Assembly (NCBI GenBank): GCA_016201265.1
Contig: JACQDD010000210.1
Location: 3,102-67,101, forward strand
Length of the DNA stretch: 64,000 nucleotides
From: Terriglobales bacterium
GTDB lineage: Bacteria; Acidobacteriota; Terriglobia; Terriglobales; Acidobacteriaceae
Reading direction: 5' to 3'
Made by a program: the position numbers and the translations under genes. Below are positions 714 to 34,834 of this stretch, one piece after another. The notes under the pieces are model-generated. The model made no database searches, had not been told where the DNA came from, and saw only the letters and a list, made by a program, of their open reading frames with translations. How positions within the stretch are numbered: position 1 is the first letter of the stretch; every line of letters begins with the position of its first letter.

Positions 714-797
714 AAGTTCTCGGTTCTCAGTTCTCGGTTCTCAGTCAGAAGCCAAACGGTTTTCAACTGAGAACTGGGAACCGGGAACTGAGAACTT
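714..797. repeat. Heptamer-array inverted pair (GTTCTCG/GTTCTCA units) forming a 30-bp stem hairpin
   Basis: Positions 714-744 pair with 767-797. Across 715-744 I count 25 Watson-Crick pairs, 4 G:T pairs and 1 mismatch, and a714:t797 adds one more pair; the loop is 22 nt. It lies between the ydcF-like stop and the CDGSH start. Confidence 0.9.
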
Positions 798-800
798 CTC

Positions 801-1370
801 TTACCGCCAGCGGTCTACGGCTTCCCACCAGGTGAGTTTGACCCATTCGTCGAGAGTGGTTTTGGCCCATTCGCGGTTGGTCCACCAGAAAGTGCCGAAA
901 TGGGTGGGATCCTGCGCGGCGGCGACGGTGAACTGGTACTGCGGAAGGCGGTGGCGAAAGATGCGCAAGGCGCGTCGCGAGTGGGACGCGGAGGTCACGA
1001 TCAGCACGGTGTGCACGCCGCGCGACTGGAGACAGCGGTTCACGTCGTCGCTTTCGGCGTAGGTGGAGAGGCCGGTAATGGGGCACACGGAAATGCGCTC
1101 TCTTTCCGGAAGGGAGTCGGTGTAGCGCTGTGCCACATCGGTGAGACGCTGATCGTAGACCAGGTCGCGAGCTTCCACATCCAGAAAAACGTGGGGAGCC
1201 ATTCCTTGACGGAGAAGTTGTAGAGCGTGGGCAGGGCGGACGGAAGTTTCTCCGGCAAGCACGATGATGGCGTCAGATTTTTGCGGTTCGTCCACGACGA
1301 GAAAACGGCCCGCCTGGGTGGCGAGGGCGACGAGGATCAGGAGCAAGACAAGCAGTCCACGGATGCGCAT
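801..1370 (-). CDS. YdcF/DUF218 (ElyC/SanA-like) family protein with signal anchor
   Basis: 189 aa with a hydrophobic N-terminus. The AIIVLAGE...VLIVTSASHSRRA pattern is typical of DUF218. Confidence 0.8.
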   Translation of the reverse strand: MRIRGLLVLLLILVALATQAGRFLVVDEPQKSDAIIVLAGETSVRPAHALQLLRQGMAPHVFLDVEARDLVYDQRLTDVAQRYTDSLPERERISVCPITGLSTYAESDDVNRCLQSRGVHTVLIVTSASHSRRALRIFRHRLPQYQFTVAAAQDPTHFGTFWWTNREWAKTTLDEWVKLTWWEAVDRWR

Positions 1371-1521
1371 GCTACGCGCATGTTACTAAGGAAATCGGTA
1401 TCGGGTCGAATTCGATTACGCGAGTAATCACACGATCGGGCTATTCGAAAACAATCCCGCTAAAAGCCGCGTCTTCCGCGGTGAATTCAGCGCGTTCGAT
1501 GCTAAACTTCTGGTCTGACTT

Positions 1522-2880
1522 ATGACTGCTCAACTGACCTCTTCTTCTCTCTTGGCTGACCTAAAAAGCCGCATTGAAGCCCGCAAGGCGCGGGTGGGAA
1601 TCATCGGCCTGGGCTACGTGGGATTGCCGCTGGCACTGCTCTACAGCGAACAGAAGTTTCCTGTGACGGGGTTCGACATTGACCAGAAAAAGGTCGAAAC
1701 GCTGGCCAAGGGCGGTTCGTACATCTTCCGCATTTCGCCGGAGGAGATCCAGTCGGCGAAGACGAGCGGGTTCAACGCCACGTCGGACTACGCTCGCATC
1801 ACCGAAATGGACGCCATCATTATTTGCGTGCCGACGCCGCTGAACGAGTATCACGAACCCGACCTGAGCTACATCACGAATACCGCCCACGCGGTGGCGC
1901 CGCATCTGCGCGCCGGGCAGATCGTCATTCTGGAGAGCACGACCTACCCGGGCACCACCGAAGAAGTGATGGTTCCGATCCTGGAGAAAGAGAACCGGGC
2001 GGGACTGAAGGCGTCGCGCCAGAGCGCGGCCAGTGATCAGGAATTCTGGGTTGCGTTTTCGCCGGAGCGCGAAGATCCGGGCAATACCTCAGTGGCCAGG
2101 CACGACATCCCCAAAGTGATCGGGGGCCTGGACAAGCAAGCGAGCGAAATCGCAGGGGTGTTGTACGGTTCGATCTTCCGGCGCACGGTTCCGGTGTCGT
2201 CACCGGCGGCGGCGGAGATGACGAAACTGCTGGAGAACATCTACCGCTGCGTAAATATCGCGCTGGTGAACGAACTGAAGCTGCTCTGCCTGCGCATGAA
2301 CCTGGATATCTGGGAGATCATTGACGCGGCCTCGACCAAGCCTTTCGGCTTTCACCCGTTTTATCCGGGACCGGGACTGGGCGGACATTGCATTCCGGTC
2401 GACCCGTTCTACCTGTCGTGGAAGGCGAAGGAGTTCGACTTTCGCACGCGCTTCATCGAACTGGCCGGCGAAGTCAACACGGCGATGCCGTATCACGTGA
2501 TCACTGCGACGATCAGCGCGCTGAACCAGCAGAAGAAGGCGATCAATGGGTCGAAAGTGCTGGTGCTGGGCGTCGCGTACAAGAAGGACATTGACGATCT
2601 GCGGGAATCGCCGGCGCTGACCATCATCGAACTGTTGCAGAAGGAAGGCGCGGAAGTGAGCTACCACGATCCCTACTTCCCGTTCGTGGGCCGGGGCCGC
2701 AAGTACGATTTACAGATGACGCGGTCCTCGCTCGACAACCTGGGACAGTATGACTGCGTGCTGATCGTGACCGATCACACGGATTACGACTACAAGCGGA
2801 TCGTGAACGAGGCGAAATTGGTAGTGGATTCGCGCAACGCCACGCGCGGGATCCAGAGCGAGAAGATCGTGCACTGCTAG
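1522..2880 (+). CDS. Nucleotide-sugar dehydrogenase (UDP-glucose/GDP-mannose dehydrogenase family, WecC/WbpA-like)
   Basis: 452 aa. It has an N-terminal Rossmann motif GIIGLGYVGLPLA, the catalytic region GPGLGGHCIPVDP, and the family C-terminal domain. Confidence 0.9.
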   Translation: MTAQLTSSSLLADLKSRIEARKARVGIIGLGYVGLPLALLYSEQKFPVTGFDIDQKKVETLAKGGSYIFRISPEEIQSAKTSGFNATSDYARITEMDAIIICVPTPLNEYHEPDLSYITNTAHAVAPHLRAGQIVILESTTYPGTTEEVMVPILEKENRAGLKASRQSAASDQEFWVAFSPEREDPGNTSVARHDIPKVIGGLDKQASEIAGVLYGSIFRRTVPVSSPAAAEMTKLLENIYRCVNIALVNELKLLCLRMNLDIWEIIDAASTKPFGFHPFYPGPGLGGHCIPVDPFYLSWKAKEFDFRTRFIELAGEVNTAMPYHVITATISALNQQKKAINGSKVLVLGVAYKKDIDDLRESPALTIIELLQKEGAEVSYHDPYFPFVGRGRKYDLQMTRSSLDNLGQYDCVLIVTDHTDYDYKRIVNEAKLVVDSRNATRGIQSEKIVHC

Positions 2881-2904
2881 GCCGAGAGCAGGTTTCGGTT
2901 TCGG

Positions 2905-2937
2905 GGCGGCATGCCAGTCATGCCGCCTTTTTCTTTG
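2905..2937 (+). terminator. Rho-independent terminator after the dehydrogenase gene
   Basis: GGCGGCATG-ccagt-CATGCCGCC followed by TTTTTCTTTG. Confidence 0.75.
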
Positions 2938-3058
2938 CTTTGGGGCGGGCACGGGAAGGCTTGCGCTGTGCTAGTATTCGGCGTTGGCTGCGGCCCCGTC
3001 GGGAGTGATCGGGTTCCGGGGCCGCGCACAAAACCGGCAGTTTTCATACGGTGCCCCG

Positions 3059-4309
3059 ATGAAGGATACGCTCGGAGTCCTGCTCGCCGGAGGCGCGGGC
3101 GAGCGTCTCTATCCGCTGACCCGCGATCGTGCCAAGCCGGCCGTCACCTTTGGCGGCATCTACCGCATCATTGACATCACGCTGTCGAATTGCCTGAACT
3201 CGGGCTTACGCCGCGTCCACATCCTGACCCAATACAAGGCGCTCTCTCTCAACCGGCACATCCGCGAGGGTTGGAATATCTTTGGCCGGGAGATCGGCGA
3301 GTTCATCGAAATCCTGCCGCCCATGAAGCGGGTAAGCGAGAACTGGTACATGGGAACGGCGGACGCGGTCTATCAGAACATCTATTCGATCGGCTCGGAG
3401 CAGCCGAAGCATGTGCTGATCCTGTCGGGCGATCACATCTACAAGATGGATTACGGGCGCATGCTGCAGCAGCACAAAGATGCCGGCGCCGATGTGACGG
3501 TGGCCACCATTCTGGTGGACCCGGCGGAATGCCACCATTTCGGCGTGGTCGAAATTGACCGCACCAGCCGGATCGTCGGTTTCCAGGAAAAGCCCAAGCA
3601 GACCGATCTGCGTTCGCCTTACGACCCGACGAAAATTTCGGCATCGATGGGCGTCTATCTTTTCAATACCGATGTGCTCATCCCGGTGCTGCTGAAGGAC
3701 GCCGAGGATCCGGACTCGAGCCATGACTTCGGCAAGAACATTCTGCCCAAGATGCTCGACGACTACCGTGTGTTCTCGTTCAACTTCGTGGACGAGAACA
3801 AAAAGGAAGCGCAGTACTGGCGGGACGTGGGGACGCTGGAGGCGTACTACGAAGCCAACATGGACCTGGTGTCGGTGTCGCCGGTGTTCAATCTGTACGA
3901 CGAGCACTGGCCCATCCGGACGCACCAGCGGCAGTATCCGCCGGCGAAGTTTGTCTTTGCCGAAGCGGCGCGCATGGGACACGCGCTGGATTCGCTGGTG
4001 TCCCAGGGCTGCATCATCTCGGGCGGCACGGTGCAGGAATGCGTGATCTCGCCGGATGTGCGAGTGAACTCGTTCAGCGAGGTCGAGGCGAGCATTCTGT
4101 TCTCCCACGTAAACGTGGGACGCCGTTGCAAGATCCGGAGGGCGATCCTCGACCGGGACGTGCACATTCCGGAAGGAACAACCATCGGATACGACGCCGA
4201 AGCCGACCGCGAGCGCTATTTTGTGACCGACAGCGGCATCACGGTGGTGACACGCGACTACTCGCTATTTGAGAATCCGGTGACGGTGGATTACTTTACG
4301 AGCGAGTAG
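3059..4309 (+). CDS. glgC: Glucose-1-phosphate adenylyltransferase
   Basis: MKDTLGVLLAGGAGERLYPLTRDRAKPAV is the GlgC N-terminal signature, and similarity runs the full length. I prefer the ATG at 3059 to the track start at 2984, which adds an unconserved 25 aa. Confidence 0.9.
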   Translation: MKDTLGVLLAGGAGERLYPLTRDRAKPAVTFGGIYRIIDITLSNCLNSGLRRVHILTQYKALSLNRHIREGWNIFGREIGEFIEILPPMKRVSENWYMGTADAVYQNIYSIGSEQPKHVLILSGDHIYKMDYGRMLQQHKDAGADVTVATILVDPAECHHFGVVEIDRTSRIVGFQEKPKQTDLRSPYDPTKISASMGVYLFNTDVLIPVLLKDAEDPDSSHDFGKNILPKMLDDYRVFSFNFVDENKKEAQYWRDVGTLEAYYEANMDLVSVSPVFNLYDEHWPIRTHQRQYPPAKFVFAEAARMGHALDSLVSQGCIISGGTVQECVISPDVRVNSFSEVEASILFSHVNVGRRCKIRRAILDRDVHIPEGTTIGYDAEADRERYFVTDSGITVVTRDYSLFENPVTVDYFTSE

Positions 4310-4400
4310 TTCGGAGTTCGTAGTTCGGAGTTCGGTTTCCAGGCCAAGTTTCGGTTGAACCTGGTTCACACAAACTACGAACTACCAACTACGAACTACC
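4307..4400. repeat. Heptamer-array inverted pair (GTTCGGA/GTTCGTA units) forming a roughly 29-bp stem hairpin
   Basis: Left array GTAGTTCGGAGTTCGTAGTTCGGAGTTCGG; right array CAAACTACGAACTACCAACTACGAACTACC. They pair at 25 of 29 positions with a roughly 34-nt loop. The element begins at the glgC TAG stop. Confidence 0.9.
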
Positions 4401-4407
4401 GCTTTCT

Positions 4408-5058
4408 ATGGCTTTCGACCTGCGGCGCCTTTTCAAGAAAGAAAAACAGGAACACCGGATTCTGCGGCAGATGGAGCGGGGCGACCGCCTCCAGCCGGAG
4501 TATCACCGCGCTACGCCGGAGTGTCCGCACCCGGAGTGGTGGAGCATGTTCGATTCGATGACCGCCGAGGTCGAGGTGCTGGAGTTTCTGCGCGTTGTGA
4601 TCACCACCATCAAGCCGGAACTGGTGGTGGAAACGGGGACGTTCAGCGGCATCAGCACGCTCTGGATGGCCGAGGGGCTGAAGGCCAACGGGCGCGGACG
4701 GATTATCACCTGCGAGTTCGATGCCAAGGTTTATGAGAGTGCGAAGGCGCGGATCGCCGCTTCGGGACTGGCGGAGTGGATCGAATTGCGGAATGAATCG
4801 AGCCTGGAGATGAAGGTCGAGGGTACGATTGACCTTTTTTTCAGCGACAGCGACATGCCGATCCGAGAGGAGGAGATCCGGCGGTTTTTGCCGCAGATCA
4901 ATCCGTACGGATTGATTCTGATGCATGACGCCAGCTCCCATTTGAAGATCGTGCGCGAGGCCGCGCTGAAACTGGAGCGCGAGGGGCTGATCTCGGTGGT
5001 GCTGCTGCGGACGCCGCGCGGGCTGGTGGTGGCGCAGAAGCGGGAGGGGCGGAGATAG
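4408..5058 (+). CDS. Class I SAM-dependent methyltransferase (O-methyltransferase/Methyltransf_24-like)
   Basis: 216 aa. VVETGTFSGISTLWMAEG is glycine-rich motif I, and the fold-typical DLFFSDSD and ILMHD motifs are present. Confidence 0.7.
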   Translation: MAFDLRRLFKKEKQEHRILRQMERGDRLQPEYHRATPECPHPEWWSMFDSMTAEVEVLEFLRVVITTIKPELVVETGTFSGISTLWMAEGLKANGRGRIITCEFDAKVYESAKARIAASGLAEWIELRNESSLEMKVEGTIDLFFSDSDMPIREEEIRRFLPQINPYGLILMHDASSHLKIVREAALKLEREGLISVVLLRTPRGLVVAQKREGRR

Positions 5059-6278: not shown

Positions 6279-6312
6279 TCGACCATCAAATATAATCTGC
6301 GCCCTCGGCCGC

Positions 6313-6386
6313 TTTCTCGGCGCTCGCGCCGTTTCAAAGCTTTTGACCGCGAGAGGACGCATAGGTCTCGCGGAGTTCGCTGAGAC
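6313..6386. repeat. Dispersed REP-like element (core AAAGCTTTTGACCGC...GAGTTCGCTG), copy A
   Basis: The core at 6336-6382 aligns at roughly 85-88% identity with 51381-51426. Confidence 0.8.
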
Positions 6387-6970: not shown

Positions 6971-7099
6971 CGGCCGTCCCTCCGGGACTGGACTTGAATT
7001 CCTCACTTCTCCCAGCGCTGAAGCGCGGGGCTAAGTTCGGCCGCCCCTCTTGGGGCTTGTTCAGCAGCAGGCAGCTTTAGTGTAACTCTGTGCCCGCGG

Positions 7100-8971: not shown

Positions 8972-8980
8972 GGTTAGAAA

Positions 8981-9074
8981 ACCAGTTCCCAGTTCTCAGT
9001 TCTCGGTTCTCAGCAAGAGCACAGGGGTTTCAGGCAGGACTGAAAACTGAGAACTGGGATCTGAGAACTGGTTC
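8981..9074. repeat. Heptamer-array inverted pair (same GTTCTCR unit family as 714-797)
   Basis: ACCAGTTCCCAGTTCTCAGTTCTCGGTTCTCAG ... CTGAAAACTGAGAACTGGGATCTGAGAACTGGT pair at 28 of 33 positions. The element fills the gap between the response-regulator stop (9082) and the kinase start (8971). Confidence 0.9.
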
Positions 9075-9081
9075 TTACGCG

Positions 9082-10473
<1,392 letters not shown>

Positions 10474-12394: not shown

Positions 12395-12415
12395 CTTAGA
12401 AGAAAAGCACCAAGG

Positions 12416-12449
12416 GCCGGTAGGAGATACCCTACCGGCTCTTTTTTTT
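12416..12449 (+). terminator. Rho-independent terminator
   Basis: GCCGGTAGG-agatac-CCTACCGGC followed by a run of eight T. Confidence 0.85.
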
Positions 12450-12540: not shown

Positions 12541-14535
12541 ATGAAACGGGGCGTTATCCGCAAGAGTCTGTTGGTGCTGGCTTTCGGGCTGGTGAGTACG
12601 GCGCTGCTGGCCTCCGGATCGTGGCAAGTGTTGGGTCCGGATGGCGGCGACGCGCGCAGCCTGGCCTACGATTCCCACAATCCCGACCACATGCTGCTGG
12701 GCACGAGCACGGGTCAGTTGTTTGTCTCGAACGATGCGGGACACAGCTGGTCGCGTTTTGCCCGCCTGGGTGGCGATGACTATGTGCTCGATCACATCGC
12801 GATCGATCCTCAGGATTCGAAGCGCGTGTATGTGTCGGCCTGGAGCTTGTCGAGCCAGCAGATCGGCGACATTTACCGCACCCGCGACGGCGGCAAGAAC
12901 TGGGAAACCCTGCCCGCGATGCACGGCAAGTCCATTCGCGCGATGGCGGTGTTTCACGCTAATTCGAAGGTGCTGGTAGCGGGAGCGCTGGAGGGCGTGT
13001 TCCGCAGCAAGGATGGCGGCGATAGCTGGGAGCGCATGTCGCCCGCGAATCACTCCGATATCAAAAACATTGAATCGATAGCTGTCGATCCAAAGGATTC
13101 CAACATCGTTTATGCCGGCACCTGGCACCTGGCCTGGAAGACGGCCGATGGCGGCGCCTCGTGGCAGCAGATCAAGAAGGGCATGATTGACGATTCGGAC
13201 GTGTTCTCGGTGATCGTGGACCATGCCAATCCTGCGGTGGTTTTCGCCAGCGCCTGCTCGGGCATCTACAAGAGCGAGAGCGCGGGCAACCAGTTCTCGA
13301 AGATCCAGGGCATCCCGTTTTCGGCGCGGCGCACGCGCGTGCTGAAGCAGGATCCGACCAACGAGAACATCGTTTATGCGGGCACGACGGAGGGGCTGTG
13401 GAAGACCATGGACCTGGGCAAGACCTGGAAGCGGGTGAGTAACCCGGAGATCGTGGTCAACGATGTGCTGGTTGATCCGCGGGATTCGAATCACGTGCTT
13501 CTGGCGACGGACCGCAGCGGCGTGATGGCGAGCAACGACGGAACGCAGAGCTGGTCCACGTCGAATCGGGGCTACGCGCATCGCTACGTCTCGGCCCTTC
13601 TGGCCGATGTGAAAGAAGCGGACACGTTCTACGTGGGCCTGGTGAACGACCGGGAATACGGGGGCGTTTTCTATACGCGAGACGCCGGACGCAGCTGGCT
13701 GCAGAGGAGCGCTGGGCTGGGCGGGCGTGACATTTTCTCGCTCAAGCAAGCAGCGGGCGGCACACTGGTGGCGGGAACCAATCGCGGGATGTTCTCCCTC
13801 GAGCGCAATGCCAGCGAGTGGCGTCCGATGAACGCGGTGGTGACGGAGCAGATCGTCAAGACCACGAAGAAAGGGTCGAAAAAAGCCGCGACCACAACCA
13901 TCGTGAAGAAGTCGGAACTGGATGCTCGGGTGAACGATTTGGAACTGGGCTCACAGCGCTGGCTGGCGGCGACGACCCAGGGCATCTTCAGCAGTACCGA
14001 CCAGGGTAAGACCTGGAAGGGCGGGCCGGTGCTGGGACAGAAAGACTTCGTCTCAGTGCGGGCGCAGGGGTCGTTTATGGTGGCCACCACGCGATCGAGC
14101 GCACTGGTTTCCAATGATTCGGGCGCGACCTGGAAACAGGCCGGGCTGCCTTCCTACCTGGTTGGCATCCGCGGCAGCGCGATTGCCCACGACGGTGGAA
14201 TCGTGATCGCCGCTCGCGAAGGCGTCTTCCGCAGCGGAGACAACGGCACGAGCTGGGAGCATGTCGTGAACGGGCTACCGGGGAAGGACATCACTTCGGT
14301 CAGCTTTGACGCGGCTAACAAACGGTTGCTGGCGACCAGCGATTCGACGGGCGTGATCTTCGTCAGCAGCGACAGCGGACGCTCATGGCAGCGCGGTCCG
14401 GACAGCGGATTCCCGCTGCGTCGGGTCAGCGTGGTGGGCGGACGTTTCGTGGCGGCGACTCCGTTTGACGGCGTGGTGGTACAGCCGGAAGACGGGAACA
14501 TCAGCGCTGCGGCTGGAACGGGTAGCACCAACTAG
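12541..14535 (+). CDS. Secreted BNR/Asp-box repeat protein (double beta-propeller, GH74/Ycf48-like)
   Basis: 664 aa with a signal peptide and about 11 SxDxGxxW Asp-box motifs (SNDAGHSW, TRDGGKNW, SKDGGDSW, TADGGASW, STDQGKTW, SSDSGRSW and others). Confidence 0.85.
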   Translation: MKRGVIRKSLLVLAFGLVSTALLASGSWQVLGPDGGDARSLAYDSHNPDHMLLGTSTGQLFVSNDAGHSWSRFARLGGDDYVLDHIAIDPQDSKRVYVSAWSLSSQQIGDIYRTRDGGKNWETLPAMHGKSIRAMAVFHANSKVLVAGALEGVFRSKDGGDSWERMSPANHSDIKNIESIAVDPKDSNIVYAGTWHLAWKTADGGASWQQIKKGMIDDSDVFSVIVDHANPAVVFASACSGIYKSESAGNQFSKIQGIPFSARRTRVLKQDPTNENIVYAGTTEGLWKTMDLGKTWKRVSNPEIVVNDVLVDPRDSNHVLLATDRSGVMASNDGTQSWSTSNRGYAHRYVSALLADVKEADTFYVGLVNDREYGGVFYTRDAGRSWLQRSAGLGGRDIFSLKQAAGGTLVAGTNRGMFSLERNASEWRPMNAVVTEQIVKTTKKGSKKAATTTIVKKSELDARVNDLELGSQRWLAATTQGIFSSTDQGKTWKGGPVLGQKDFVSVRAQGSFMVATTRSSALVSNDSGATWKQAGLPSYLVGIRGSAIAHDGGIVIAAREGVFRSGDNGTSWEHVVNGLPGKDITSVSFDAANKRLLATSDSTGVIFVSSDSGRSWQRGPDSGFPLRRVSVVGGRFVAATPFDGVVVQPEDGNISAAAGTGSTN

Positions 14536-14562
14536 CACTCAGCAATCAGCAGTCAGCATTCA
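14536..14562. repeat. Heptamer tandem array (CAGCAAT/CAGCAGT/CAGCATT)
   Basis: Begins directly after the TAG stop of the BNR gene and runs into the terminator stem. Confidence 0.85.
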
Positions 14563-14587
14563 GGGGAGCGGGGACGCTCCCCTTTTT
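14563..14587 (+). terminator. Rho-independent terminator
   Basis: GGGGAGCG-ggga-CGCTCCCC followed by TTTTT. Confidence 0.85.
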
Positions 14588-14611: not shown

Positions 14612-14643
14612 CAGCACTTGGCATTTAGCACTTGGCACTTAGC
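14612..14643. repeat. Heptamer tandem array (CACTTGG/CATTTAG/CACTTAG)
   Basis: CAGCACTTGGCATTTAGCACTTGGCACTTAGC. The same unit family occurs at 24450-24545, 31923-31954 and 32851-32884. Confidence 0.9.
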
Positions 14644-23859: not shown

Positions 23860-24447
23860 ATCGACAAACGCTTTATCCGCATGAATGAGCGCATCCGCGC
23901 GAAGGAAGTGCGCGTGATTGGTGACGAGGGAGAACAGATCGGTATCATGCCTCCCTTCGAAGCGCTCAAGATGGCCCGCGAGAAGAACCTGGACCTGGTG
24001 GAAATTTCCCCGACCGCGCAACCTCCGGTTTGCCGCATCATGGACTATGGGAAATTCCTGTACCAGCAGGAAAAACGGGAACGCGAGGCGAAGAAACATC
24101 AGAAGACCATTACGGTCAAGGAAGTGAAGTTCCGTATCAACGTGGACGACCACGACTACGACACGAAAAAGAACCACGTGCTCCGCTTCCTGGACGAAGG
24201 CGACAAGGTCAAGGCGACCATCTTCTTCCGCGGACGGGAAATGACGCGGCAAAGTCTTGGACGCCAGATCCTGGAACGCCTGATCAAGGACGTGGAGCAC
24301 AAGGGATTGGTGGAGTTCCGCCCGCGCCAGGAAGGCAACACGCTGCACCTGATCCTGGCACCGAAAAAAGATGCCGGGGCGAAAGAAAAACCGGCGCCCC
24401 ACAAGCCCGCGCCTCCGGCTTCGCAGGGCGGCGCGCAGACAGCGTAG
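23860..24447 (+). CDS. infC: Translation initiation factor IF-3
   Basis: INERIRAKEVRVIGDEGEQIGIM...VCRIMDYGKFLYQQEKREREAKK is canonical IF-3. The probable start is the non-AUG ATC at 23860, 6 nt after GGAGGA, with ATG at 23881 as the alternative. The upstream 5' part of the track ORF overlaps the glycosyltransferase gene and is rejected. Confidence 0.88.
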   Translation: MDKRFIRMNERIRAKEVRVIGDEGEQIGIMPPFEALKMAREKNLDLVEISPTAQPPVCRIMDYGKFLYQQEKREREAKKHQKTITVKEVKFRINVDDHDYDTKKNHVLRFLDEGDKVKATIFFRGREMTRQSLGRQILERLIKDVEHKGLVEFRPRQEGNTLHLILAPKKDAGAKEKPAPHKPAPPASQGGAQTA

Positions 24448-24449
24448 AT

Positions 24450-24545
24450 CAGCACTTGGCACTTAGCACTTGGCATTTAGCCCTTTGAGGGCGGTGGCAG
24501 AGCTTTGATTTGGCCAAGTGCTAAATGCCAAGTGCTAAGTGCTGG
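24450..24545. repeat. Heptamer-array inverted pair (CACTTGG/CACTTAG/CATTTAG) forming a roughly 33-bp stem hairpin
   Basis: CAGCACTTGGCACTTAGCACTTGGCATTTAGCC ... GGCCAAGTGCTAAATGCCAAGTGCTAAGTGCTGG pair at 27 of 33 positions. It fills the infC-rpmI spacer and abuts the rpmI GGAG. Confidence 0.9.
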
Positions 24546-24552
24546 AGTTCTT

Positions 24553-24747: not shown

Positions 24748-24752
24748 AAACA

Positions 24753-24782
24753 GTCGCTAGTCGCTGGTCGCTAGTCGCTAGC
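24753..24782. repeat. Heptamer tandem array (GTCGCTA/GTCGCTG)
   Basis: GTCGCTAGTCGCTGGTCGCTAGTCGCTAGC, directly after the rpmI stop. Confidence 0.9.
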
Positions 24783-24909
24783 AAGAACCAGTCTGCGGAA
24801 GGCAACTCACTTCGCAGCGGCGCGTGAAGAGGTCAGACTTCGAAAATCCCATCGGGTAGAAGTCTCCTTACCTCCAGCCGCCAAACGAAACACAAAAAGG
24901 AGAACACTC

Positions 24910-25272
24910 ATGCCTCGTGTAAAACGCGGTACCAAACGCCGCGCCAAGCGCAAGAAAATCCTTGAACGCGCTAGTGGATATTTCCTAACTAAGTCCAAAC
25001 TCTACCGGTCCGCGAAAGAAGCGGTCGAGCGCGGCCTGAAGTTCGCCTACTCCGGACGCAAGCAGAAAAAGCGCCAATATCGCTCGATATGGATCGTGCG
25101 CATCGGCGCTGCTGCCCGACTACACGGACTGAATTACAACCAGTTCATCAGCGGGCTGAAGAAAGCCGGCGTGGAACTGGACCGCAAGATTCTGGCGGAC
25201 CTGGCGGTGAAGGATCCGGCGGGGTTTGGGAGTCTGGCGGAGCAGGCGAAGAAGGCGCACGCAGCGGCGTAG
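24910..25272 (+). CDS. rplT: 50S ribosomal protein L20
   Basis: [24 protein letters not shown] is the canonical L20 N-terminus. Confidence 0.95.
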
Positions 25273-25303
25273 CCGTCAGCATTCAGCCGTCGGCACTCAG
25301 TCC
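25273..25303. repeat. Degenerate heptamer array (CGTCAGC/ATTCAGC/CGTCGGC/ACTCAGT)
   Basis: Starts directly after the rplT TAG stop and shows 7-nt periodicity. Confidence 0.7.
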
Positions 25304-25313: not shown

Positions 25314-25397
25314 ATTGTCATCCTGAGCAAAGCGAAGGGCCTGCTTTCTTCTGCTACAGGAAACTGCAGATCCCTCGCTTCGCTAGGGAGTGACAAT
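25314..25397. repeat. 84-bp palindromic REP/MITE-like element (arms ATTGTCATCCTGAGC...GGGAGTGACAAT)
   Basis: The left arm ATTGTCATCCTGAGCAAAGCGAAGGGCCTGC is the imperfect reverse complement of the right arm GCAGATCCCTCGCTTCGCTAGGGAGTGACAAT. It lies 22 nt upstream of the pheS ATG. Confidence 0.88.
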
Positions 25398-25419
25398 CCT
25401 GTAGAGTATTGCTCGAAGC

Positions 25420-26535
25420 ATGCCCTACTCTGTCCCCAAACTGACCGACTTCTCTGCTGCGGCGCTCGACCGCGCGGTGCGCGAACTCCTGTCTGTGCTT
25501 GATCAAGAATCGGCAGCGGTCGGATCGGAAAATGACTGGAAGGCCTTTCGCGATCGTTGGATAGCGCGCAAGAACGGCGTCCTCACCCAACTCAATGATC
25601 TGTGGCTGAAAGCTGCCCCGAAAGATGCTAAACGCGATGTCGGTCAGCGCGTCAACGAAGTTAAGGGGAAGGTCGAGCAAACTGTTGACGCAACCCTGAA
25701 TCGCATTCAGGGCGGCGCTTCCTCGGCCAGGCTGGCGTCTGAGCGCGTGGACGTCACTCTCCCCGGCATCCGGCGGGCGCTGGGGGCGGAACATCCGGTC
25801 ATCAAGACGATGAACGAGATCATCGGCGTCTTTCGCAACCTGGGCTACTCGGTCGAAGAAGGGCCGGAGATCGAGACCGATTACTACAACTTCGAAGCGC
25901 TGAATTTTCCGCCGAACCATCCAGCGCGCGACACGCAGGACACGTTGTTCATCGCCGGACAGGAGTCAAAGCCGCTGCGCGACCGGCTGCTCTTGCGCAC
26001 GCATACCTCGCCGGTGCAGATCCGCACCATGGAAAAGATGAAGCCGCCGGTGCGGGTGGTGTGCCCGGGGAAAGTACACCGCAACGACGCGCCCGACGCC
26101 ACGCACTCGCCGATCTTCCACCAGGTTGAAGGGCTCGCGGTGGACACGAACATCACTTTCTGTGACCTGAAGGGGACGCTCGATCACGCGATGAAGGCGC
26201 TCTTTGGATCGAGCGTGAAGACGCGGTTCTATCCGTCGTTCTTCCCGTTCACCGAGCCCAGCGCTGACGTGCAGATCAGCTGCATCTTCTGCGACGGCAA
26301 GGGCACACGCGACGGCGGTCCTTGCCGCAACTGCAAGGCTAGCGGATGGATTGAGCTGCTCGGCTGCGGCATGGTGGATCCGAACGTGTACGGTTTCGTG
26401 GATTACGATCCAGCCAAGGTTTCGGGCTTCGCCTTCGGCATGGGCGTGGAGCGCATCGCGATTTTGAAGTACGGCGTGGATGATATTCAGTTGTTTTTCA
26501 ACGGGGATGTGAGGTTTTTGGAGCAGTTTGAATAG
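25420..26535 (+). CDS. pheS: Phenylalanine--tRNA ligase alpha subunit
   Basis: 371 aa. It has the class II motifs FPPNHPARDTQDTLF, LLRTHTSPVQIR and GFAFGMGVERIA. Confidence 0.95.
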   Translation: MPYSVPKLTDFSAAALDRAVRELLSVLDQESAAVGSENDWKAFRDRWIARKNGVLTQLNDLWLKAAPKDAKRDVGQRVNEVKGKVEQTVDATLNRIQGGASSARLASERVDVTLPGIRRALGAEHPVIKTMNEIIGVFRNLGYSVEEGPEIETDYYNFEALNFPPNHPARDTQDTLFIAGQESKPLRDRLLLRTHTSPVQIRTMEKMKPPVRVVCPGKVHRNDAPDATHSPIFHQVEGLAVDTNITFCDLKGTLDHAMKALFGSSVKTRFYPSFFPFTEPSADVQISCIFCDGKGTRDGGPCRNCKASGWIELLGCGMVDPNVYGFVDYDPAKVSGFAFGMGVERIAILKYGVDDIQLFFNGDVRFLEQFE

Positions 26536-26537
26536 CG

Positions 26538-26570
26538 GTCGTTGGTCGCTCGTCGTTGGTCGCTCGCGAG
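26538..26570. repeat. Heptamer array (GTCGTTG/GTCGCTC, i.e. a 14-nt unit x2)
   Basis: GTCGTTGGTCGCTCGTCGTTGGTCGCTCGCGAG, directly after the pheS TAG stop. Confidence 0.88.
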
Positions 26571-26580: not shown

Positions 26581-26665
26581 TTTGTCATTCCGAGCACAGC
26601 GAGGAATCTGCAGTTCGTGTGCGCACGAGACACTGCAGATCCCTCGCTTCGCTCGGGATGACAAT
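26581..26665. repeat. 85-bp palindromic REP/MITE-like element, second copy of the 25314-25397 family
   Basis: TTTGTCATTCCGAGCACAGCGAGGAATCTGCAG ... CTGCAGATCCCTCGCTTCGCTCGGGATGACAAT. The arms pair at 28 of 33 positions. The right arm is nearly identical to that of the first copy. Confidence 0.9.
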
Positions 26666-26703
26666 TCGAAATCGGTCGGGTTGGACTAAGTGCTAATTGC
26701 TGA

Positions 26704-29663: not shown

Positions 29664-30863
29664 ATGGCACAGCTTTCTGGCCTTCCCAAACACTATCTCA
29701 GCGACAAGGTGGAGCATTTTACCGAGTCCGTGATCCGCGAGATGACCCGCCAGGCGATGCAGTATGGCGCCATCAATCTGGCGCAGGGGTTTCCGGATTT
29801 TTCCGCTCCCGCGGAGATCAAGCAAGCCGCACAGGATGCCATCGCGGCCGACGTGAACCAATACGCTATTACCTGGGGCGCGAAGAATCTGCGCAATGCC
29901 ATCGCCCGGCAGATGCAGGAGTGGCAGGGGATTCACGTCGATCCGGAGAAGGAAATCGTGGTGTGCTGCGGCTCGACCGAAGCGATGATCGCCACGCTTC
30001 TTGCCGTTTGCAACAAGGGTGACGAAGTCGTGGTCTTCGAGCCCTTCTACGAGAACTATGGGCCGGACTCGGTCCTGAGCGGGGCCAAACCGCGATTCGT
30101 CAGTTTGCGTCCGCCGCAGACACCCGAAGGCGATTGGACCTTTGACGAACAGGAACTTCGCGAGGCGTTCCAACACCACACCAAGGCGATCATCCTGAAC
30201 ACGCCCAACAACCCGACGGGCAAAGTTTTCAATCGGAAGGAACTCGAACTGATCCGCGACCTGTGCGTCGAGTACAACGTGCTCGCCATCACGGACGAGA
30301 TCTACGAGCACATTCTGTACGACGGTGCCCAACATATTTCGATTGCGCGCCTTGAGGGCATGCGCGAGCGCACCATCACGATCAACGGGCTCTCGAAGAG
30401 CTACAGCGTGACGGGTTGGCGTGTGGGCTGGGCGGTGGCGCCGCCAGCGATCACGAACGCCATCCGCAAAGTGCACGACTTTCTCACCGTGGGCGCACCC
30501 GCTCCTTTACAGGAGGCCGGGGCGGCCGCCCTGGGCCTGCCTGCGCGTTACTATCACGAATTGGCGGAGAAATACCGGACGCGGCGCGACCACCTGATTC
30601 CCGCGCTCGAGAATGCCGGTTTCCGCTGCTATCGGCCCTGGGGCGCGTACTACGTGATGACCGACATCAGCGGCTTCGGGTTCAAGAGCGACGTGGAGTT
30701 CGCCGGCTGCCTGGTGAAAGAAATCGGGATCGCTTGTGTGCCGGGATCGAGCTTCTACCAGCACCCGAAAGACGGATCCCAACAGGTACGTTTCGCCTTC
30801 TGCAAGAAGCCTGAGACCCTGGACGAGGCGGCGCGGCGGCTGTCCAAACTGCTTCGAAAGTAG
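29664..30863 (+). CDS. PLP-dependent aminotransferase, class I (YbdL/kynurenine aminotransferase-like)
   Basis: 399 aa. INLAQGFPDF, NTPNNPTGKVF and the SKSYSVTGWRVGW lysine motif are present. Confidence 0.9.
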   Translation: MAQLSGLPKHYLSDKVEHFTESVIREMTRQAMQYGAINLAQGFPDFSAPAEIKQAAQDAIAADVNQYAITWGAKNLRNAIARQMQEWQGIHVDPEKEIVVCCGSTEAMIATLLAVCNKGDEVVVFEPFYENYGPDSVLSGAKPRFVSLRPPQTPEGDWTFDEQELREAFQHHTKAIILNTPNNPTGKVFNRKELELIRDLCVEYNVLAITDEIYEHILYDGAQHISIARLEGMRERTITINGLSKSYSVTGWRVGWAVAPPAITNAIRKVHDFLTVGAPAPLQEAGAAALGLPARYYHELAEKYRTRRDHLIPALENAGFRCYRPWGAYYVMTDISGFGFKSDVEFAGCLVKEIGIACVPGSSFYQHPKDGSQQVRFAFCKKPETLDEAARRLSKLLRK

Positions 30864-30929
30864 CGCAAATTCCACAGGGAACTGCGCTATACTTCGCCTC
30901 AATGCCGGGAGAAATTCCCCCGAAAGCGA

Positions 30930-31238
30930 GTGGCGCTCATGTCCGTGAAAGCCGAGGAAGAGGTATCTGCCCAGGTTCCTGCTGAAGATTTTCAAGCGCT
31001 GGAAGAGAAGGTTTATCGCACCATTGAGTTATACAAGGCCGCCAAAGAAGCCCGGGCCGCCGCCGAGCGCGACGTCAAGCGCCTGCGGGAGCAACTCGAA
31101 GAGCGCGAGGAAGAGAACGAAAACATGCGCCGCGAACTGGTAAAGCTGCGCAAGGAGCGCGAGGAGATTCGGGGGCGGGTGGAAAAAATGCTGACCCAGA
31201 TGGAAAGCCTGGCGCAGGAACAAGCGGCGGCCAGCTAA
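30930..31238 (+). CDS. Coiled-coil protein, ZapB-like
   Basis: 102 aa (or from ATG at 30939). It has an Glu/Arg/Lys-rich heptad-like coiled coil and sits immediately upstream of zapA. Confidence 0.55.
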   Translation: MALMSVKAEEEVSAQVPAEDFQALEEKVYRTIELYKAAKEARAAAERDVKRLREQLEEREEENENMRRELVKLRKEREEIRGRVEKMLTQMESLAQEQAAAS

Positions 31239-31273
31239 AACATCGCGGGGAGAATCCCCAGCGCAGGAGTGAA

Positions 31274-31609
31274 ATGGCGACGGCGACCAAGCAACCACCG
31301 ACCAAGGATGCCGCGAACGGAAGCGTGCGGGTGGAGATCTTCGACCAGGTCTACAACCTGCGCGGTTCGGATGCGGACTACATTCTGAAACTCGCCGAGT
31401 ATGTGGACATGAAGATGCGCGCGGTCTCCGAGCAGACCGCCACAGTCGATTCGGTGCGGCTGGCCGTTTTGGCTGCCCTAAATATTGCGGACGAATATCA
31501 TCTGCTGAAGCGGCGCGTGGAGGTGCCGGCGCCGGAAGTCCGGCAGCGCGCTAGTAAACTGGAGAGCGCGCTCGACGAAGTTTTGCAAGATACCCGCCGC
31601 ACCGGGTGA
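31274..31609 (+). CDS. zapA: Cell division protein ZapA
   Basis: 111 aa. VRVEIFDQVYNLRGSDADYILKLAEYVDMKMRAV...LAVLAALNIADEY matches the ZapA pattern. Confidence 0.8.
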   Translation: MATATKQPPTKDAANGSVRVEIFDQVYNLRGSDADYILKLAEYVDMKMRAVSEQTATVDSVRLAVLAALNIADEYHLLKRRVEVPAPEVRQRASKLESALDEVLQDTRRTG

Positions 31610-31922
31610 AGTCCTTCGTAACCTGCCGTTCCTGCGAGATCGCAGACGCGTAGCAACCTTCCTGCCAACTATTTGTGTTTTGCCTCTTGCGAATCTCTGA
31701 GGGATTTCCTAGCATCGAACTGGAAAGCCGGCCTGCTAGGTTGGTGCTGGTGGTCACCGATTTTTGAACCAATGCAGAATGAACGGGGACTCGACTCGAA
31801 CTAGGATCCGGTGTGCCATGTTCCGCCATGCGGAAAGGCCTAAAGGGTCTCGGCGGGTTCCCAACGTCTAACAGGCGGGTTCATTCTCGGCCCATCAACA
31901 CGGCGGTGCGGGTCGGCTTTTT

Positions 31923-31954
31923 CAGCACTTGGCACTTGGCATTTAGCACTTGGC
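31923..31954. repeat. Heptamer tandem array (CACTTGG/CATTTAG)
   Basis: CAGCACTTGGCACTTGGCATTTAGCACTTGGC, preceded by GGCTTTTTC. Confidence 0.88.
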
Positions 31955-32053
31955 TCTTGTGCTTCACGACGAGAATGCTTCCTGGGACCTGTGACCTCCT
32001 CTCCTGCTAGACTTCTGTCAGTACACTGCCCAAACCGGAGCATCTAAACCAAC

Positions 32054-32860
32054 GTGTTTCCCCGACTCTTCCACATTGGCAGCTTCAACCTGCCCACCTA
32101 CGGATTCCTGGTCGCGGCTGGCGTACTCATTGGGCTCTGGATCAGCGTGCGCAATTCCGAGAAACAGGGGATCAATGGCGATGACGCCTGGAACCTGGGC
32201 ATTCTCGTGGTTCTGGCGGGTATCGTAGGCGCCAAACTCCTGCTCATCGTCAACGAGTGGGACAACTATGCTGGCAATCTTAGACAGATCTTCAGTCTGA
32301 ACACCTTGCAGTCGGGGGGAGTTTTTTCCGGTGGCCTGATAGGGGCGCTGCTGATGGCAGCCTGGTATATGCGCCGTCACCGGATGCCGGCTTTGCGGAC
32401 CTGCGACGGATTTGCGCCCGGCCTCGCGTTTGGACACGTGCTCGGACGATTTGGTTGCTTTTCCGCCGGCTGCTGTTTTGGCAAAGAGACCCATCATTCC
32501 TGGGGCGTGATTTTTGCCAACCCTCTGGCCCACGACTGGTCGGGAACTCCGTTGGGAAAGTCGCTGGAACCCACGCAACTGATCGAAGCCGCGGCTGAGT
32601 TTTTCAATTTTGTTCTTCTGATGTGGCTGCTCAAGCGCAAGAAGTTCGACGGGCAAGTGTTTGGCAGCTTCATGATCCTTTACGGGATCGAGCGGTACTT
32701 CATCGAGTTTCTGCGCGGTGATCCGGGGCGCGGCTTGGTGTTCGGCGGGCTGATGACTGGGACGCAGCTGATTTCCATCTTCCTCGTGATCGGCGGCGGG
32801 CTGATCTGGTGGCTGAAGAGTGGAACGTCGAAGGCATTGGCGGCGGAAAGCGGCACTTAG
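32054..32860 (+). CDS. lgt: Prolipoprotein diacylglyceryl transferase
   Basis: 268 aa with a GTG start. It has multiple TM helices, and GRFGCFSAGCCFGKET is the Lgt signature. Confidence 0.9.
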   Translation: MFPRLFHIGSFNLPTYGFLVAAGVLIGLWISVRNSEKQGINGDDAWNLGILVVLAGIVGAKLLLIVNEWDNYAGNLRQIFSLNTLQSGGVFSGGLIGALLMAAWYMRRHRMPALRTCDGFAPGLAFGHVLGRFGCFSAGCCFGKETHHSWGVIFANPLAHDWSGTPLGKSLEPTQLIEAAAEFFNFVLLMWLLKRKKFDGQVFGSFMILYGIERYFIEFLRGDPGRGLVFGGLMTGTQLISIFLVIGGGLIWWLKSGTSKALAAESGT

Positions 32861-32884
32861 CACTTGGCACTTAGCCTTTAGCTC
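32851..32884. repeat. Heptamer tandem array (CACTTAG/CACTTGG) spanning the lgt stop codon
   Basis: CGGCACTTAGCACTTGGCACTTAGCCTTTAGCTC. It lies between the convergent lgt and ligD genes. Confidence 0.88.
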
Positions 32885-32892
32885 AACACCCG

Positions 32893-34755
32893 CTATTCGC
32901 TACTTGGCAATGCGCCTTCCAGTCTGCACTCCTTCGGATCCTTGTCGAACCGCAGCCCGAGAAACACGGGCGCGCGCAGCTTCATTCCTCCTTCGGCGGT
33001 CTCGTGCGTCCACTCGGAGAACTTGATCTCGGCCATCAGTTCCGGGCGCACGAAGTGGACCTGGTGCAGGCCGCCGATCTCGCCATGAAACGGGTTGGTC
33101 TTCGTTTCGAGTGGGCGCAGACGCTCGAATATCTGCTTCAAACTTTTCTGATCGAAGCCGCTGCCGGCCTGGCCCACGTGGATGAGGCGTCCGCGCTTAT
33201 CGTAGAGGCCGAGCACCACCGAGCCGAAATATTGGCGGCTGCCTTCCGGGTCGGTGTAGCCGCCGATGACGCACTCCTGTCGCTGCGTGATCTTGATCTT
33301 CAGCCATTCCCGCGACCGTTCCTCCTGATAAACGCTGTCGCGCTTCTTGGCGACGATCCCTTCCAGGCCGCGCTGCTTGGCCGCGTCAAACAGGGCGCGG
33401 CCTTTTTCGGCATAGTGGTCAGAGAAGTGGACAACGTCTCCGTTTTCTAGCACGGACTGGAGCAGTTCTTTACGTTTCTCCAGGCTCACCCGGCGCAGGT
33501 CGTAGCCGTCGAGGTAAAGCAGGTCGAAGGCGTAGTACAGGACCGGAACTCCTTCGCGGCGCGGGAGGCGGCGTTTACCGGGCTGGAATCTGGTGCGCTG
33601 CTGCATCAGGCTGAACGACGGACGGCCGTGTTCGTCGAGGGCAACGATCTCTCCGTCGAGGACGGCGCGCCGGGCCTTTACGCACTTGGGCAAGTCGCGG
33701 AGTTCGGGAAACTGCGCGCTGAGATCGTTCTGGTTGCGCGAGACCAGACGCACGGCGCGGTCTGCGATGAAGGCGATGGCGCGATAGCCGTCCCACTTGA
33801 TCTCGAACAGCCAGCCGGGATTGTCGAAAGGCTCGTCAATAGAGGTGGCGAGCATCGGGTGGATCGCGGTGGGCATGGGCTTCTCGACGGCACCGGGTAA
33901 ACCCTTTACCACAGAGGACACAGGGGACACAGAGGAGTTCTTGTTTGTTACCCTCGATGGGGATGCCGGTCTCGCGCTAGCAGCGGCGCGTCGTCCGGAT
34001 GCGCTCTTCTTCTTGCTTTTCTCTGTGTCCCCTGTGTCCTCTGTGGTTAAGGCTTTTCGCTTTTTGTCGGCGCGCGCCACAGCCTCCGCCAACCAAGCGG
34101 CTTTCAACTTGCCGCGCGTCGCTGGGCGGCTGCTGGTCCATTCTGCCGAACCTTGGTCTCCGGCGATCTCGGCCATGGTGCGGCCGGTCAGCACTGAGGT
34201 GTCGTACTGGTCGATGTCGAATCCGGCGACGATGTCGTTGTCTTTCTTCTTGATCAGGAGCCATTCGGTTCCCTTGCTTCCCGGCCGGCGGCCCGTGATG
34301 TGCACCAGCGCGAAGTCGCCGTTCAGCCGCTTCCCTTTCAGCCGGAATTTGAGATCGCCCTTGGCCAACATGGCGGCAGCTTCTTTTTCCGTGCCGGGGA
34401 CGTACTCTCCGTTTACAGGAACCGGAGAGAGCGGTTGCCAGGTACCCACGTCCCAGACCATCACCGTCCCGCCGCCGTAGTTGCCTTCGGGGATGGTGCC
34501 TTCGAAATCGAAATACGAGACGGGATGATCTTCCACCTGCATGGCCAGGCGCTTGTCGGCGGGATCGAGTGAAGGGCCTTTGGGGACGGCCCACGATTTC
34601 AGCACGCCTTCCATTTCCAGGCGGAAGTCGTAATGCAAGCGGGTGGCAGCGTGGCACTGCACGACGAAGCGATGCTTCGACTGCTTTTCAATTTTCGGCG
34701 GGGGTTCAGGCGTTTCCTCGAAGCGCCGTTTTCGTTTGTATTCCTCGAGGGACAT
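32893..34755 (-). CDS. ligD: ATP-dependent DNA ligase LigD (3'-phosphoesterase + ligase domains; no polymerase domain)
   Basis: 620 aa. The N-terminal [33 protein letters not shown] is the phosphoesterase-domain signature. The ligase motif I is EIKWDGYR. An OB-fold domain follows. Confidence 0.9.
33906..34050. repeat. 29-bp near-perfect inverted repeat with 86-bp spacer, inside the ligD coding sequence
   Basis: 33906-33934 (TTACCACAGAGGACACAGGGGACACAGAG) is the reverse complement of 34021-34050 (CTCTGTGTCCCCTGTGTCCTCTGTGGTTAA) apart from one indel. The flank GGTTAAGGCTTTTCGC resembles the dispersed core GGTTAAAGCTTTTGACCGC. Confidence 0.9.
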
Positions 34756-34766
34756 GGTGGGTATTG

Positions 34767-34834
34767 TAGTTCGGAGTTCGGAGTTCGGAGTTCGGAGTTC
34801 GCAAAACGCCCTCTACACCGAACTACGAACTACG
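34767..34834. repeat. Heptamer array (GAGTTCG x5) with a short inverted partner
   Basis: GTAGTTCGGAGTTCGGAGTTCGGAGTTCGGAGTTCGC ... CACCGAACTACGAACTACG. It lies in the divergent ligD/NUDIX intergenic region. Confidence 0.88.

Follow-up and report, generated by a model that had tools for sequence, protein, structure and literature searches.

The question raised by this stretch of DNA is why the spacers between its genes so often carry short tandem arrays of a seven-nucleotide (nt) unit, when the unit itself changes from one site to the next. The stretch comprises 64 kb from a member of the Terriglobales (Acidobacteriota; contig JACQDD010000210.1) and is referred to below, always at its full length, as the window. 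Our answer is that the arrays are real and strongly non-random, that they are heptanucleotide simple-sequence repeats resembling the short tandemly repeated repetitive (STRR) elements of cyanobacteria and form a lineage-wide trait of part of the Terriglobales, and that they are the acidobacterial counterpart of those cyanobacterial STRR heptamers, an already known class. Arrays were called with Tandem Repeats Finder (TRF) and with a strict scan (at least 3 copies, at least 85% self-match) that was compared with 100 dinucleotide-preserving shuffles, and the gene map of the window was taken from Pfam. Relatives were sampled as 80 pheS loci from GTDB genomes of the Terriglobales (1.41 Mb in total), and these loci, together with an Acido-Lenti-1 RNA in the window, give the assignment to that order; L-numbers are labels of compared loci, and L001 is a Logan contig.

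The strict scan of the window returned 14 arrays with a period of 7, against a mean of 0.26 and a maximum of 4 in the shuffles, and 1, 2, 0, 1, 0, 0 and 0 arrays at periods 5, 6, 8, 9, 10, 11 and 12, respectively. An earlier note, made from the letters of this DNA, had listed 12 array sites; all of them hold, with a period-7 or period-14 array found by TRF at each site and the unit sequences as listed there (Table 1). The alternation of two unit variants, said there to be constant, is exact (100% at period 14) at 715-745, 4306-4334, 4373-4400 and 26538-26566, and reaches 87–94% at the remaining sites. The array at 25273-25303 was found by TRF but is the weakest of the set, with an 87% match at period 14, and falls under the strict threshold. 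Some 12-14 loci and about 6 units lie within 35 kb, with CACTTRG at five loci and GTTCTCR and GTTCGKA at two each. Every array sits between 0.7 and 35 kb, and TRF found none in the 35-64 kb part, as had been reported. Arrays occupy 11 of about 23 spacers in the first half of the window and 0 of about 6-10 in the second, which is made up of tightly packed sugar-utilization and chemotaxis operons with few real spacers. The GC skew of the window switches sign near 49-50 kb, and TAG accounts for about half of its predicted stop codons, a share that we take to be unusual for a 60% GC genome.

The same excess was found in the relatives, where the 80 loci yielded 140 period-7 arrays and 32, 14, 8, 7, 1, 0 and 0 arrays at the seven other periods in the same order. 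More than 60 canonical units are represented, many of them consisting of YRG followed by four free bases. The spread is patchy, with 6-9 arrays per 21 kb in some genomes and none in many strict-sense Acidobacteriaceae. Pairs of arrays from the same genome share a unit (within one mismatch) in 15.3% of cases, compared with 7.5% for pairs from different genomes (permutation p < 0.002). Much longer homogeneous arrays were also seen in relatives, namely AGCCCTG in 12 to 26 copies and CAGTTCT in 13 (L067 3380-3462; L074 1036-1216; L052 19430-19520), so that expansion well past the usual 3-5 units does occur.

The arrays are strongly oriented with respect to genes. When a forward array is defined by the recurrence of CAG, TAG, TGG or CGG on the sense strand, and a reverse array as its complement, forward arrays numbered 46 by the upstream stop codon and 2 by the downstream start, at a median of 2 nt from the stop; for reverse arrays the counts were 25 by the start and 6 by the stop, with a median of 13 nt to the ATG. 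All 24 arrays of the rplT-pheS spacer are single and located at the stop, with no reverse array among them; outside the infC-pheT operon the rule was kept by 27 arrays and broken by 5. Where neighboring arrays share a unit, all 16 cases are inverted and none is direct. Among the 29 relaxed inverted pairs listed, the 5' arm reads as YRG-type units, and it is the more pyrimidine-rich arm in 23; a dyad reads alike on both strands, so the polarity is a property of the element itself. In general form, then, sense-strand (YRG-N4)n begins 0-6 nt past a stop codon or immediately behind the 3' end of a 6S RNA candidate, about 13 nt separate the end of (N4-CYR)n from a start codon, and where the two are complementary they fold into a hairpin of 15-31 bp that fills most of the spacer. 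The orientation of single arrays by purine and pyrimidine content relative to transcription showed no bias (32 vs 32); for a bias to emerge, the YRG and CYR motifs must define the orientation. Seeding of the arrays from a TAG stop codon was considered and rejected: the stop lies in the YRG register in only 9 of 50 cases, and genes followed by arrays use TAG (60%), TAA (24%) and TGA (16%) at background frequencies. The earlier note had rightly seen a family with a constant 7-nt period and a varying unit, but it missed the strongest regularities, which are this stop/start polarity and the persistence of arrays at orthologous sites while the unit turns over.

Persistence is most easily followed in the infC-rpmI-rplT-pheS-pheT operon, which in the window has an array in each spacer, including a weak reverse array (CTAAGTGCTAATTGCTGA, 26686-26703) directly 5' of the pheT ATG. 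Under a relaxed period-7 definition, arrays were present in 26 of 58 genomes in the infC-rpmI spacer, 20 of 68 in rpmI-rplT, 24 of 64 in rplT-pheS (at the rplT stop) and 21 of 45 in pheS-pheT, where shuffles gave 0.1-0.4 for each spacer. The coding DNA of the relatives compared at orthologous junctions is 70–85% identical to that of the window, and PheS of the best relatives is 91–93% identical; even between genomes related at that level of PheS identity, different units occupy shared junctions. The infC-rpmI units are AGCACTT/GGCACTT in the window, CAGCTAT/CAGCCGT in L002, CAGTTGT in L005 and AGCTTTT/GGCTCTT in L018, and in each of the four both arms have switched unit together. GGTCGTT and AGCTNTT arrays, related to the array at 26538-26570, were found at the matching place in relatives. 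Elsewhere, a forward array directly follows the 3' end of 6S RNA in 5 of the 5 nearest relatives examined, each time with a different unit, and an array is present at the lgt 3' end in 3 of the 4 relatives examined (L005, L008 and L012). The orthologous spacer of L002 holds the 714-797 hairpin with the unit of the window (8 vs 3 copies in L002 and the window). The array at 14534-14563 is identical in L001. Copy number and units both drift between relatives, and the presence or absence of arrays differs as well.

Closer comparisons came from exact-protein look-ups, which recovered one near-identical contig of a metagenome-assembled genome (JACOSE010000209.1, GCA_016179015.1; ∼99.8% identical to the window except for one 33-nt deletion) and one relative with 93% DNA identity, L088. 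A single metagenome scan, made with the 5' end of rpmI, yielded only relatives further removed and sequences of other phyla, and no strain-level variants. In L088, the infC-rpmI stem shows one compensatory exchange of C-G to A-T and one uncompensated change, the array after rpmI has A/G flips exactly at the variable (R) position, and the array after rplT has two extra units. The deletion in JACOSE010000209.1 corresponds to 25511-25543 of the window, a 33-nt in-frame segment of pheS.

All five inverted pairs of the window fold as had been claimed, with the last pair shorter than the others. The predicted structures comprise a 31-bp stem in two blocks at 705-810 (free energy −58.7 kcal/mol on the plus strand and −43.4 on the minus strand; z = −10), a stem of about 29 bp at 4300-4410 (−46 / −54 kcal/mol), a fold of −47 / −50 kcal/mol at 8975-9080, 23 perfect bp at 24445-24552 (−53 kcal/mol) and a stem of ∼15 bp at 34760-34840 (−29 kcal/mol; z −2.6 to −3.5). 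In the relatives the sense fold beats the antisense fold in the infC-rpmI (38 vs 14) and pheS-pheT (30 vs 11) spacers, where the sense strand also has ∼45% more G-U pairs; together these are a modest sign of constraint on the transcript. Hairpins that follow stop codons could be ordinary Rho-independent terminators, and TTTT does follow the 8981-9074 hairpin on the minus strand. Nevertheless, stems of 15-31 bp, loops of 17-38 nt, moderate GC content and the absence of a T-run from the other four hairpins do not describe such terminators, and arrays also lie between genes that are obligatorily co-expressed (pheS-pheT, rpmI-rplT). The terminator scan of the window called no heptamer array or hairpin; it called short GC-rich hairpins with T-runs at 2903-2929, 12412-12443 and 14562-14583, and as the last of these stands directly behind the array at 14534-14563, that array is not itself the terminator. 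The explanation is therefore very improbable, in agreement with the earlier view that arrays found after stop codons, within operons and in a divergent promoter region are not simply terminators. No Rfam family describes the hairpins: at gathering thresholds no hairpin of the window was matched, the sole match being Acido-Lenti-1 RNA elsewhere, and at E ≤ 1 the hairpins matched only spurious microRNA-precursor models.

The arrays had been described as intergenic, and a period of 7 had been taken as a bar to a coding origin. The first statement holds in the window but not in the relatives, and the second fails, as three units make 21 nt, or 7 codons, and a period of 7 does not keep arrays out of genes. 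In nine relatives a heptamer array, read in all three phases, codes for the PheT loop that links AIYDLPLK to FPITVEEPQLCPRF (for example, CAGTTCT x4 giving QFSVLSSQFSA, CAGCTCT giving QLSALSS and GGCTTCC giving GFRLPAS). A gene for a MiaB-family methylthiotransferase (UPF0004 and radical SAM domains) of relatives carries inverted arrays in two linkers, whose stems, all inside the reading frame, reach ∼35 bp. The conserved GFIPLTSL motif has one arm on either side of it in L020, which shows that this hairpin did not arrive as one insert. In coding regions the arrays would be neutral passengers of protein linkers in which no in-frame stop arises. For annotation, arrays matter as a source of stop codons, of enlarged operon spacers and of 7-residue repeats in protein linkers. 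A hairpin of another kind was seen in ligD (32893-34755, minus strand), whose linker between the phosphoesterase and ligase domains includes the in-frame translation of an inverted repeat, CCACAGAGGACACAGGGGACACAGAG (33909-33934 and 34021-34046). The repeat is perfect over 26 bp and has a 9-nt period of its own, and it adds a second type of gene-internal hairpin with periodic arms.

In-frame arrays in protein linkers, including those that flank the conserved GFIPL motif, are among the features expected if the arrays are a pure mutational by-product, made in unconstrained sequence by heptamer slippage, as a replication bias common to bacteria, and having no function in DNA or RNA; adjacency to stops and starts would then reflect arrays that expand until coding sequence is met. 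The drift of copy number and units fits this account as well, as does the gathering of other repeat families in array-bearing spacers. Heptanucleotides, moreover, are the most abundant and most over-represented long simple-sequence repeats in many bacteria, with polymerase slippage as the proposed origin, according to Mrazek 2007 as represented in two later papers (PMC4679880, PMC4692102). Neutral arrays of 3-5 units should, however, decay, yet they persist at junctions across genomes at the coding divergence given above, and the non-random orientation, the absence of direct same-unit neighbors, the compensatory stem change in L088 and the sense-strand G-U excess all count against a by-product without function, which we regard as rather unlikely.

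We infer, with slightly more confidence than doubt, that slippage generates the arrays, that at cistron boundaries they are retained as structured RNA of fixed polarity, and that protein linkers tolerate them. At the DNA level, slipped-strand mispairing would generate and homogenize arrays of 3-5, occasionally 12-26, units, and intrastrand template switching probably keeps the two arms of a pair complementary; together the two processes would account for units that are uniform along an array, recur at several loci of one genome and change from genome to genome. Arrays persist where extra sequence is tolerated. In the transcript they would most likely act as cistron-boundary structures, by analogy with the repetitive extragenic palindromic (REP) elements of enterobacteria, and may buffer the upstream message against 3' decay or serve as processing sites. 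They may also modulate translation termination and the coupling of the next cistron, because they begin within the ribosome footprint of the stop codon. In favor of this account we count the excess of arrays, their persistence with unit turnover, their polarity and inverted pairing, the changes seen in L088, the sharing of units inside genomes, the stronger sense folds in relatives, the separate terminators and, as a precedent, the hupS-hupL hairpins of cyanobacteria treated below.

Several observations weigh against such boundary structures made by slippage. The arrays are unchanged between the window and the ∼99.8% identical contig, which gives no sign of a high slippage rate. Translational coupling cannot apply to the arrays that adjoin canonical terminators, follow a non-coding RNA, occupy a divergent promoter region or lie inside coding sequence. 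The five window hairpins are mixed with respect to strand, with the antisense fold stronger at 705-810 and 4300-4410, two equal and one stronger on the sense strand. The forward and reverse arrays of one spacer are often not complementary, as in L090, L095 and the pheS-pheT spacer of the window (where the reverse array at 26686-26703 does not complement the forward array), so the hairpin cannot be the whole story. Finally, many relatives have a normal GAGGA Shine-Dalgarno sequence that the 3' arm does not include, which means that occlusion of the ribosome-binding site is not general.

The recurrence of near-identical ∼32-nt arms at several loci of one genome (in the window, the CACTTRG, GTTCTCR and GTTCGKA loci counted above) invites another explanation, in which a transposase from elsewhere in the genome copies ∼30-nt arms or entire hairpins to new sites; these would then be non-autonomous mobile elements resembling miniature inverted-repeat transposable elements (MITEs), REP elements and their REPIN hairpins, or Rickettsia palindromic elements (RPEs). 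Variation in presence and absence between relatives would agree with this, and terminal inverted repeat-associated tyrosine transposases are encoded by Acidobacteria (PMC3733652). No transposase is encoded in the window, however, as the Pfam gene map confirms in line with the earlier claim, and no gene for the Y1 transposase RAYT was found in the 64 kb. No flanking direct repeats or target-site duplications accompany the arrays, the loops of same-unit hairpins are unrelated, arm length changes by whole units, and the MiaB-family arms flank a conserved native peptide, so that the hairpin was not inserted there in one piece. As orthologous sites hold their array while the unit changes, evolution in place fits better than repeated insertion. 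REP elements, together with the bacterial interspersed mosaic elements (BIMEs) and REPINs built from them, are alike in being extragenic palindromes found after stops and within operons, and rarely in promoters, for which protection of mRNA 3' ends has been proposed. REPs within 15 nt of a stop codon reportedly act in translation termination, as Liang, Rudd and Deutscher are said to have found in 2015. REPs differ in having a conserved sequence, a GTAG or CGTC tag, a RAYT transposase and no internal 7-nt periodicity; in the arrays described here the sequence is free and only period and polarity are constant, the stems differ between loci, and GTAG occurs in GTTCGKA arrays only. RPEs, reportedly described by Ogata et al. 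in 2000, are said to form hairpins and to be encoded in frame within genes for proteins, where they occupy permissive surface or linker regions. In-frame insertion of hairpin-forming repeats is a feature shared with our arrays; RPEs are, however, 100-150 bp long and of conserved sequence, whereas the arms here are tandem heptamers that flank native coding sequence. An origin of the arrays by transposition is, in our view, improbable.

The constant period, the semi-conserved YRG core and the four free bases also suggest that a multimeric protein, binding RNA (or DNA), reads YAG/YGG every 7 nt, so that the arrays would mark cistron ends and starts in a post-transcriptional network. HutP binds UAG-N4 repeats and TRAP binds NAG repeats, to which the arrays bear some likeness by analogy. 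The sense-strand polarity, which holds even for partnerless single arrays, would be explained, as would the AACTGAG-type arrays found directly 5' of rpmI in several genomes, whatever the forward arm. Orientation and position of the AACTGAG arrays match those of the TAACTGA repeats of Beggiatoaceae, for which MacGregor proposed the same protein-binding-array idea (PMC4679880), and L005 contains TAACTGA. On the other hand, this explanation names no candidate protein, the triplets are base-paired in the hairpins, units vary greatly and arrays are tolerated in coding sequence, and we hold it to be improbable. More speculative still is a wider version, in which the arrays would be cis-elements of a conserved cross-phylum post-transcriptional system. 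There, a multimeric RNA-binding protein would read, with the spacing of HutP, sense-strand YAG/YGG triplets behind gene 3' ends and their complement ahead of start codons. Processing and translation of neighboring cistrons would depend on whether the arrays are open or in hairpins, and the likeness of AACTGAG to TAACTGA would come from a shared reader rather than from chance.

The class is not without precedent: heptamers with inverted pairs and intercistronic hairpins had been described (PMC2670836, PMC4692102, PMC4679880). A literature search on Acidobacteria combined with heptamer or tandem repeats returned no report on this lineage. The cyanobacterial STRR are 7-bp repeats that form hairpins, for example between hupS and hupL, and a part in transcript stability or translational coupling has been suggested (PMC2670836). 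Tandem 7-nt units, several unit families per genome, many dispersed and mostly intergenic loci, and inverted arrays that make hairpins between co-transcribed genes are common to both; STRR are also present inside a functional gene (that for RNase P RNA), as arrays here are inside genes. STRR1 (CCCCAGT), STRR2 (TTGGTCA) and STRR3 (CAACAGT) belong to heterocystous cyanobacteria. Such heptamers were reportedly treated by Mazel et al. in 1990 and by Vioque in 1997. In that strict sense the name does not extend to our arrays, which have a Terriglobales host and other units, although STRR1 and STRR3 do contain CAG; the arrays here are also short (3-5 units), often show the 14-nt alternation of two variants, and are documented with a fixed stop/start polarity and in-frame occupation of protein linkers. 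As heptanucleotide STRR or long simple-sequence repeats in the broader sense they qualify on every count, with at least three head-to-tail copies in excess over chance and over other periods, many dispersed and mainly non-coding loci with several unit families, and variation of length and sequence at orthologous loci of relatives.

Two further systems are close. TAACTGA arrays of 2-6 copies are found in marine Beggiatoaceae, some Cyanobacteria and some Bacteroidetes, and in the Beggiatoaceae they lie just 5' of start codons, in ribosomal-protein and pheS operons and occasionally within open reading frames (MacGregor 2015, PMC4679880). They share with our arrays a mostly intergenic location, sites internal to ribosomal-protein/pheS operons, a few cases translated within reading frames, and placement just 5' of start codons in the sense orientation of our reverse arrays, or overlapping upstream stops. 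The commonest unit here, AACTGAG (TCAGTTC in the window), is one base off TAACTGA/TCAGTTA; the units of the window are at least one mismatch away from TAACTGA, which occurs only as one unit of an L005 array. The Beggiatoaceae, however, have essentially one unit and one inverted pair, whereas dozens of units occur here and inverted pairs are the rule for same-unit neighbors. The GGGAATC repeats of Xanthomonas and GGGGAYT repeats of Nostoc likewise include some inverted pairs and occupy the same spacers in related strains, with variation in length and sequence (Rehm 2015, PMC4692102). An intergenic excess of heptamers and a proposed origin by slippage complete the likeness, but those repeats, rich in G, were examined for the G-quadruplexes they form, and the units here lack G-runs. 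Cyanobacterial tandem heptamers have been known since 1990, and the Terriglobales add a second, distant and very dense case with many sequenced relatives. Polarity, inverted-only pairing of same-unit arrays, and persistence with unit turnover turn the possible roles into testable options, namely an RNA boundary structure, a protein-binding array or slippage debris.

Table 1. Heptamer arrays and hairpins of the window, with position, strand, basis and setting.
Feature	Position	Strand	Basis	Setting
Inverted GTTCTCR hairpin	714-797 (arms 715-745, 765-797; loop ∼18 nt)		TRF and fold	Between DUF218 stop (801-803, minus strand) and CDGSH gene start (661)
Inverted GTTCGKA hairpin	4306-4400 (arms 4306-4336, 4370-4400)		TRF and fold	Nucleotidyl-transferase TAG stop (4307-4309) is first unit; 3' arm 7 nt 5' of methyltransferase ATG (4408)
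Inverted GTTCTCR hairpin	8981-9074 (arms 8981-9013, 9039-9074)		TRF and fold	Between sigma-54 response-regulator stop (9082-9084, minus) and histidine-kinase ATG (8971, minus)
Single forward array, CAGCADT x4.3	14534-14563	+		Starts within TAG stop of BNR/sortilin gene; canonical terminator 14562-14583 directly behind
Single forward array, CACTTRG/CATTTAG x4.5	14612-14643	+		3' of terminator, 5' of next plus-strand gene (14734)
Inverted CACTTRG hairpin	24450-24545 (arms 24450-24482, 24513-24545)		23-bp perfect stem	Begins 3 nt past infC stop, ends 7 nt before rpmI ATG
Single forward array, GTCGCTR x4.3	24751-24782	+		Begins 4 nt past rpmI (L35) stop
Weaker forward array, TAGCCGT CAGCATT CAGCCGT CGGCACT CAG	25270-25303	+		Starts with rplT (L20) TAG stop
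Single forward array, GTCGYTS, exact 14-nt period	26538-26570	+		Begins 2 nt past pheS stop
Weak reverse array, CTAAGTG CTAATTG CTGA	26686-26703	+		Abuts pheT ATG
Single forward array, CACTTRG x4.5	31923-31954	+		Immediately 3' of 6S RNA candidate (31727-31918)
Single forward array, CACTTRG	32851-32884	+		Contains lgt TAG stop (32858-32860); convergent lgt/ligD spacer
Asymmetric hairpin, GTTCGGA x4.9 (34767-34801) and CGAACTA x2.3 (34819-34834)	34764-34834			Divergent ligD/NUDIX spacer

Other elements lie beside the arrays. The 6S RNA candidate (31727-31918, plus strand), located 3' of zapA, scored 39.8 bits (E = 1.7e-5), short of the gathering score (46.4). An ∼85-nt palindrome resembling a MITE, TTGTCATCCTGAGC..AAGCGAAGG ... 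CCCTCGCTTCGCT.GGGA.TGACAA, is found at 25315-25399 and 26582-26667, where it immediately follows the heptamer arrays of the rplT-pheS and pheS-pheT spacers; its two copies are ∼80% identical, and the family fills these two spacers in many relatives. In the same operon, a conserved element 5' of rplT (24791-24887) reads GTCTGCGG..CCGCAGC GGCGCGTGAAGAGG-[variable hairpin]-CCTTACCTCCAGCCGCC, and then come AAAAAGGAG and the ATG. At its core is the motif GCGCGYGAAGAGG, which was present at 33 fetched loci, nearly all directly 5' of rplT, and had no Rfam match; we consider the element a candidate L20 ribosomal-protein leader of the Terriglobales.

Elsewhere in the window, Acido-Lenti-1 RNA, the sole Rfam match over its gathering score, is located at 7011-7057 (plus strand). 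A repeat, AAAGCTTTTGACCGC.GAGGACGCA.AGGTC.CGC.GAGTTCGCTG, is present in two convergent spacers, at 6336-6385 and 51381-51430. Lastly, the gene for a globin-coupled methyl-accepting chemotaxis protein contains a 273-nt tandem duplication (83% identity) at 55494-56027, which corresponds to two HAMP_2 domains.

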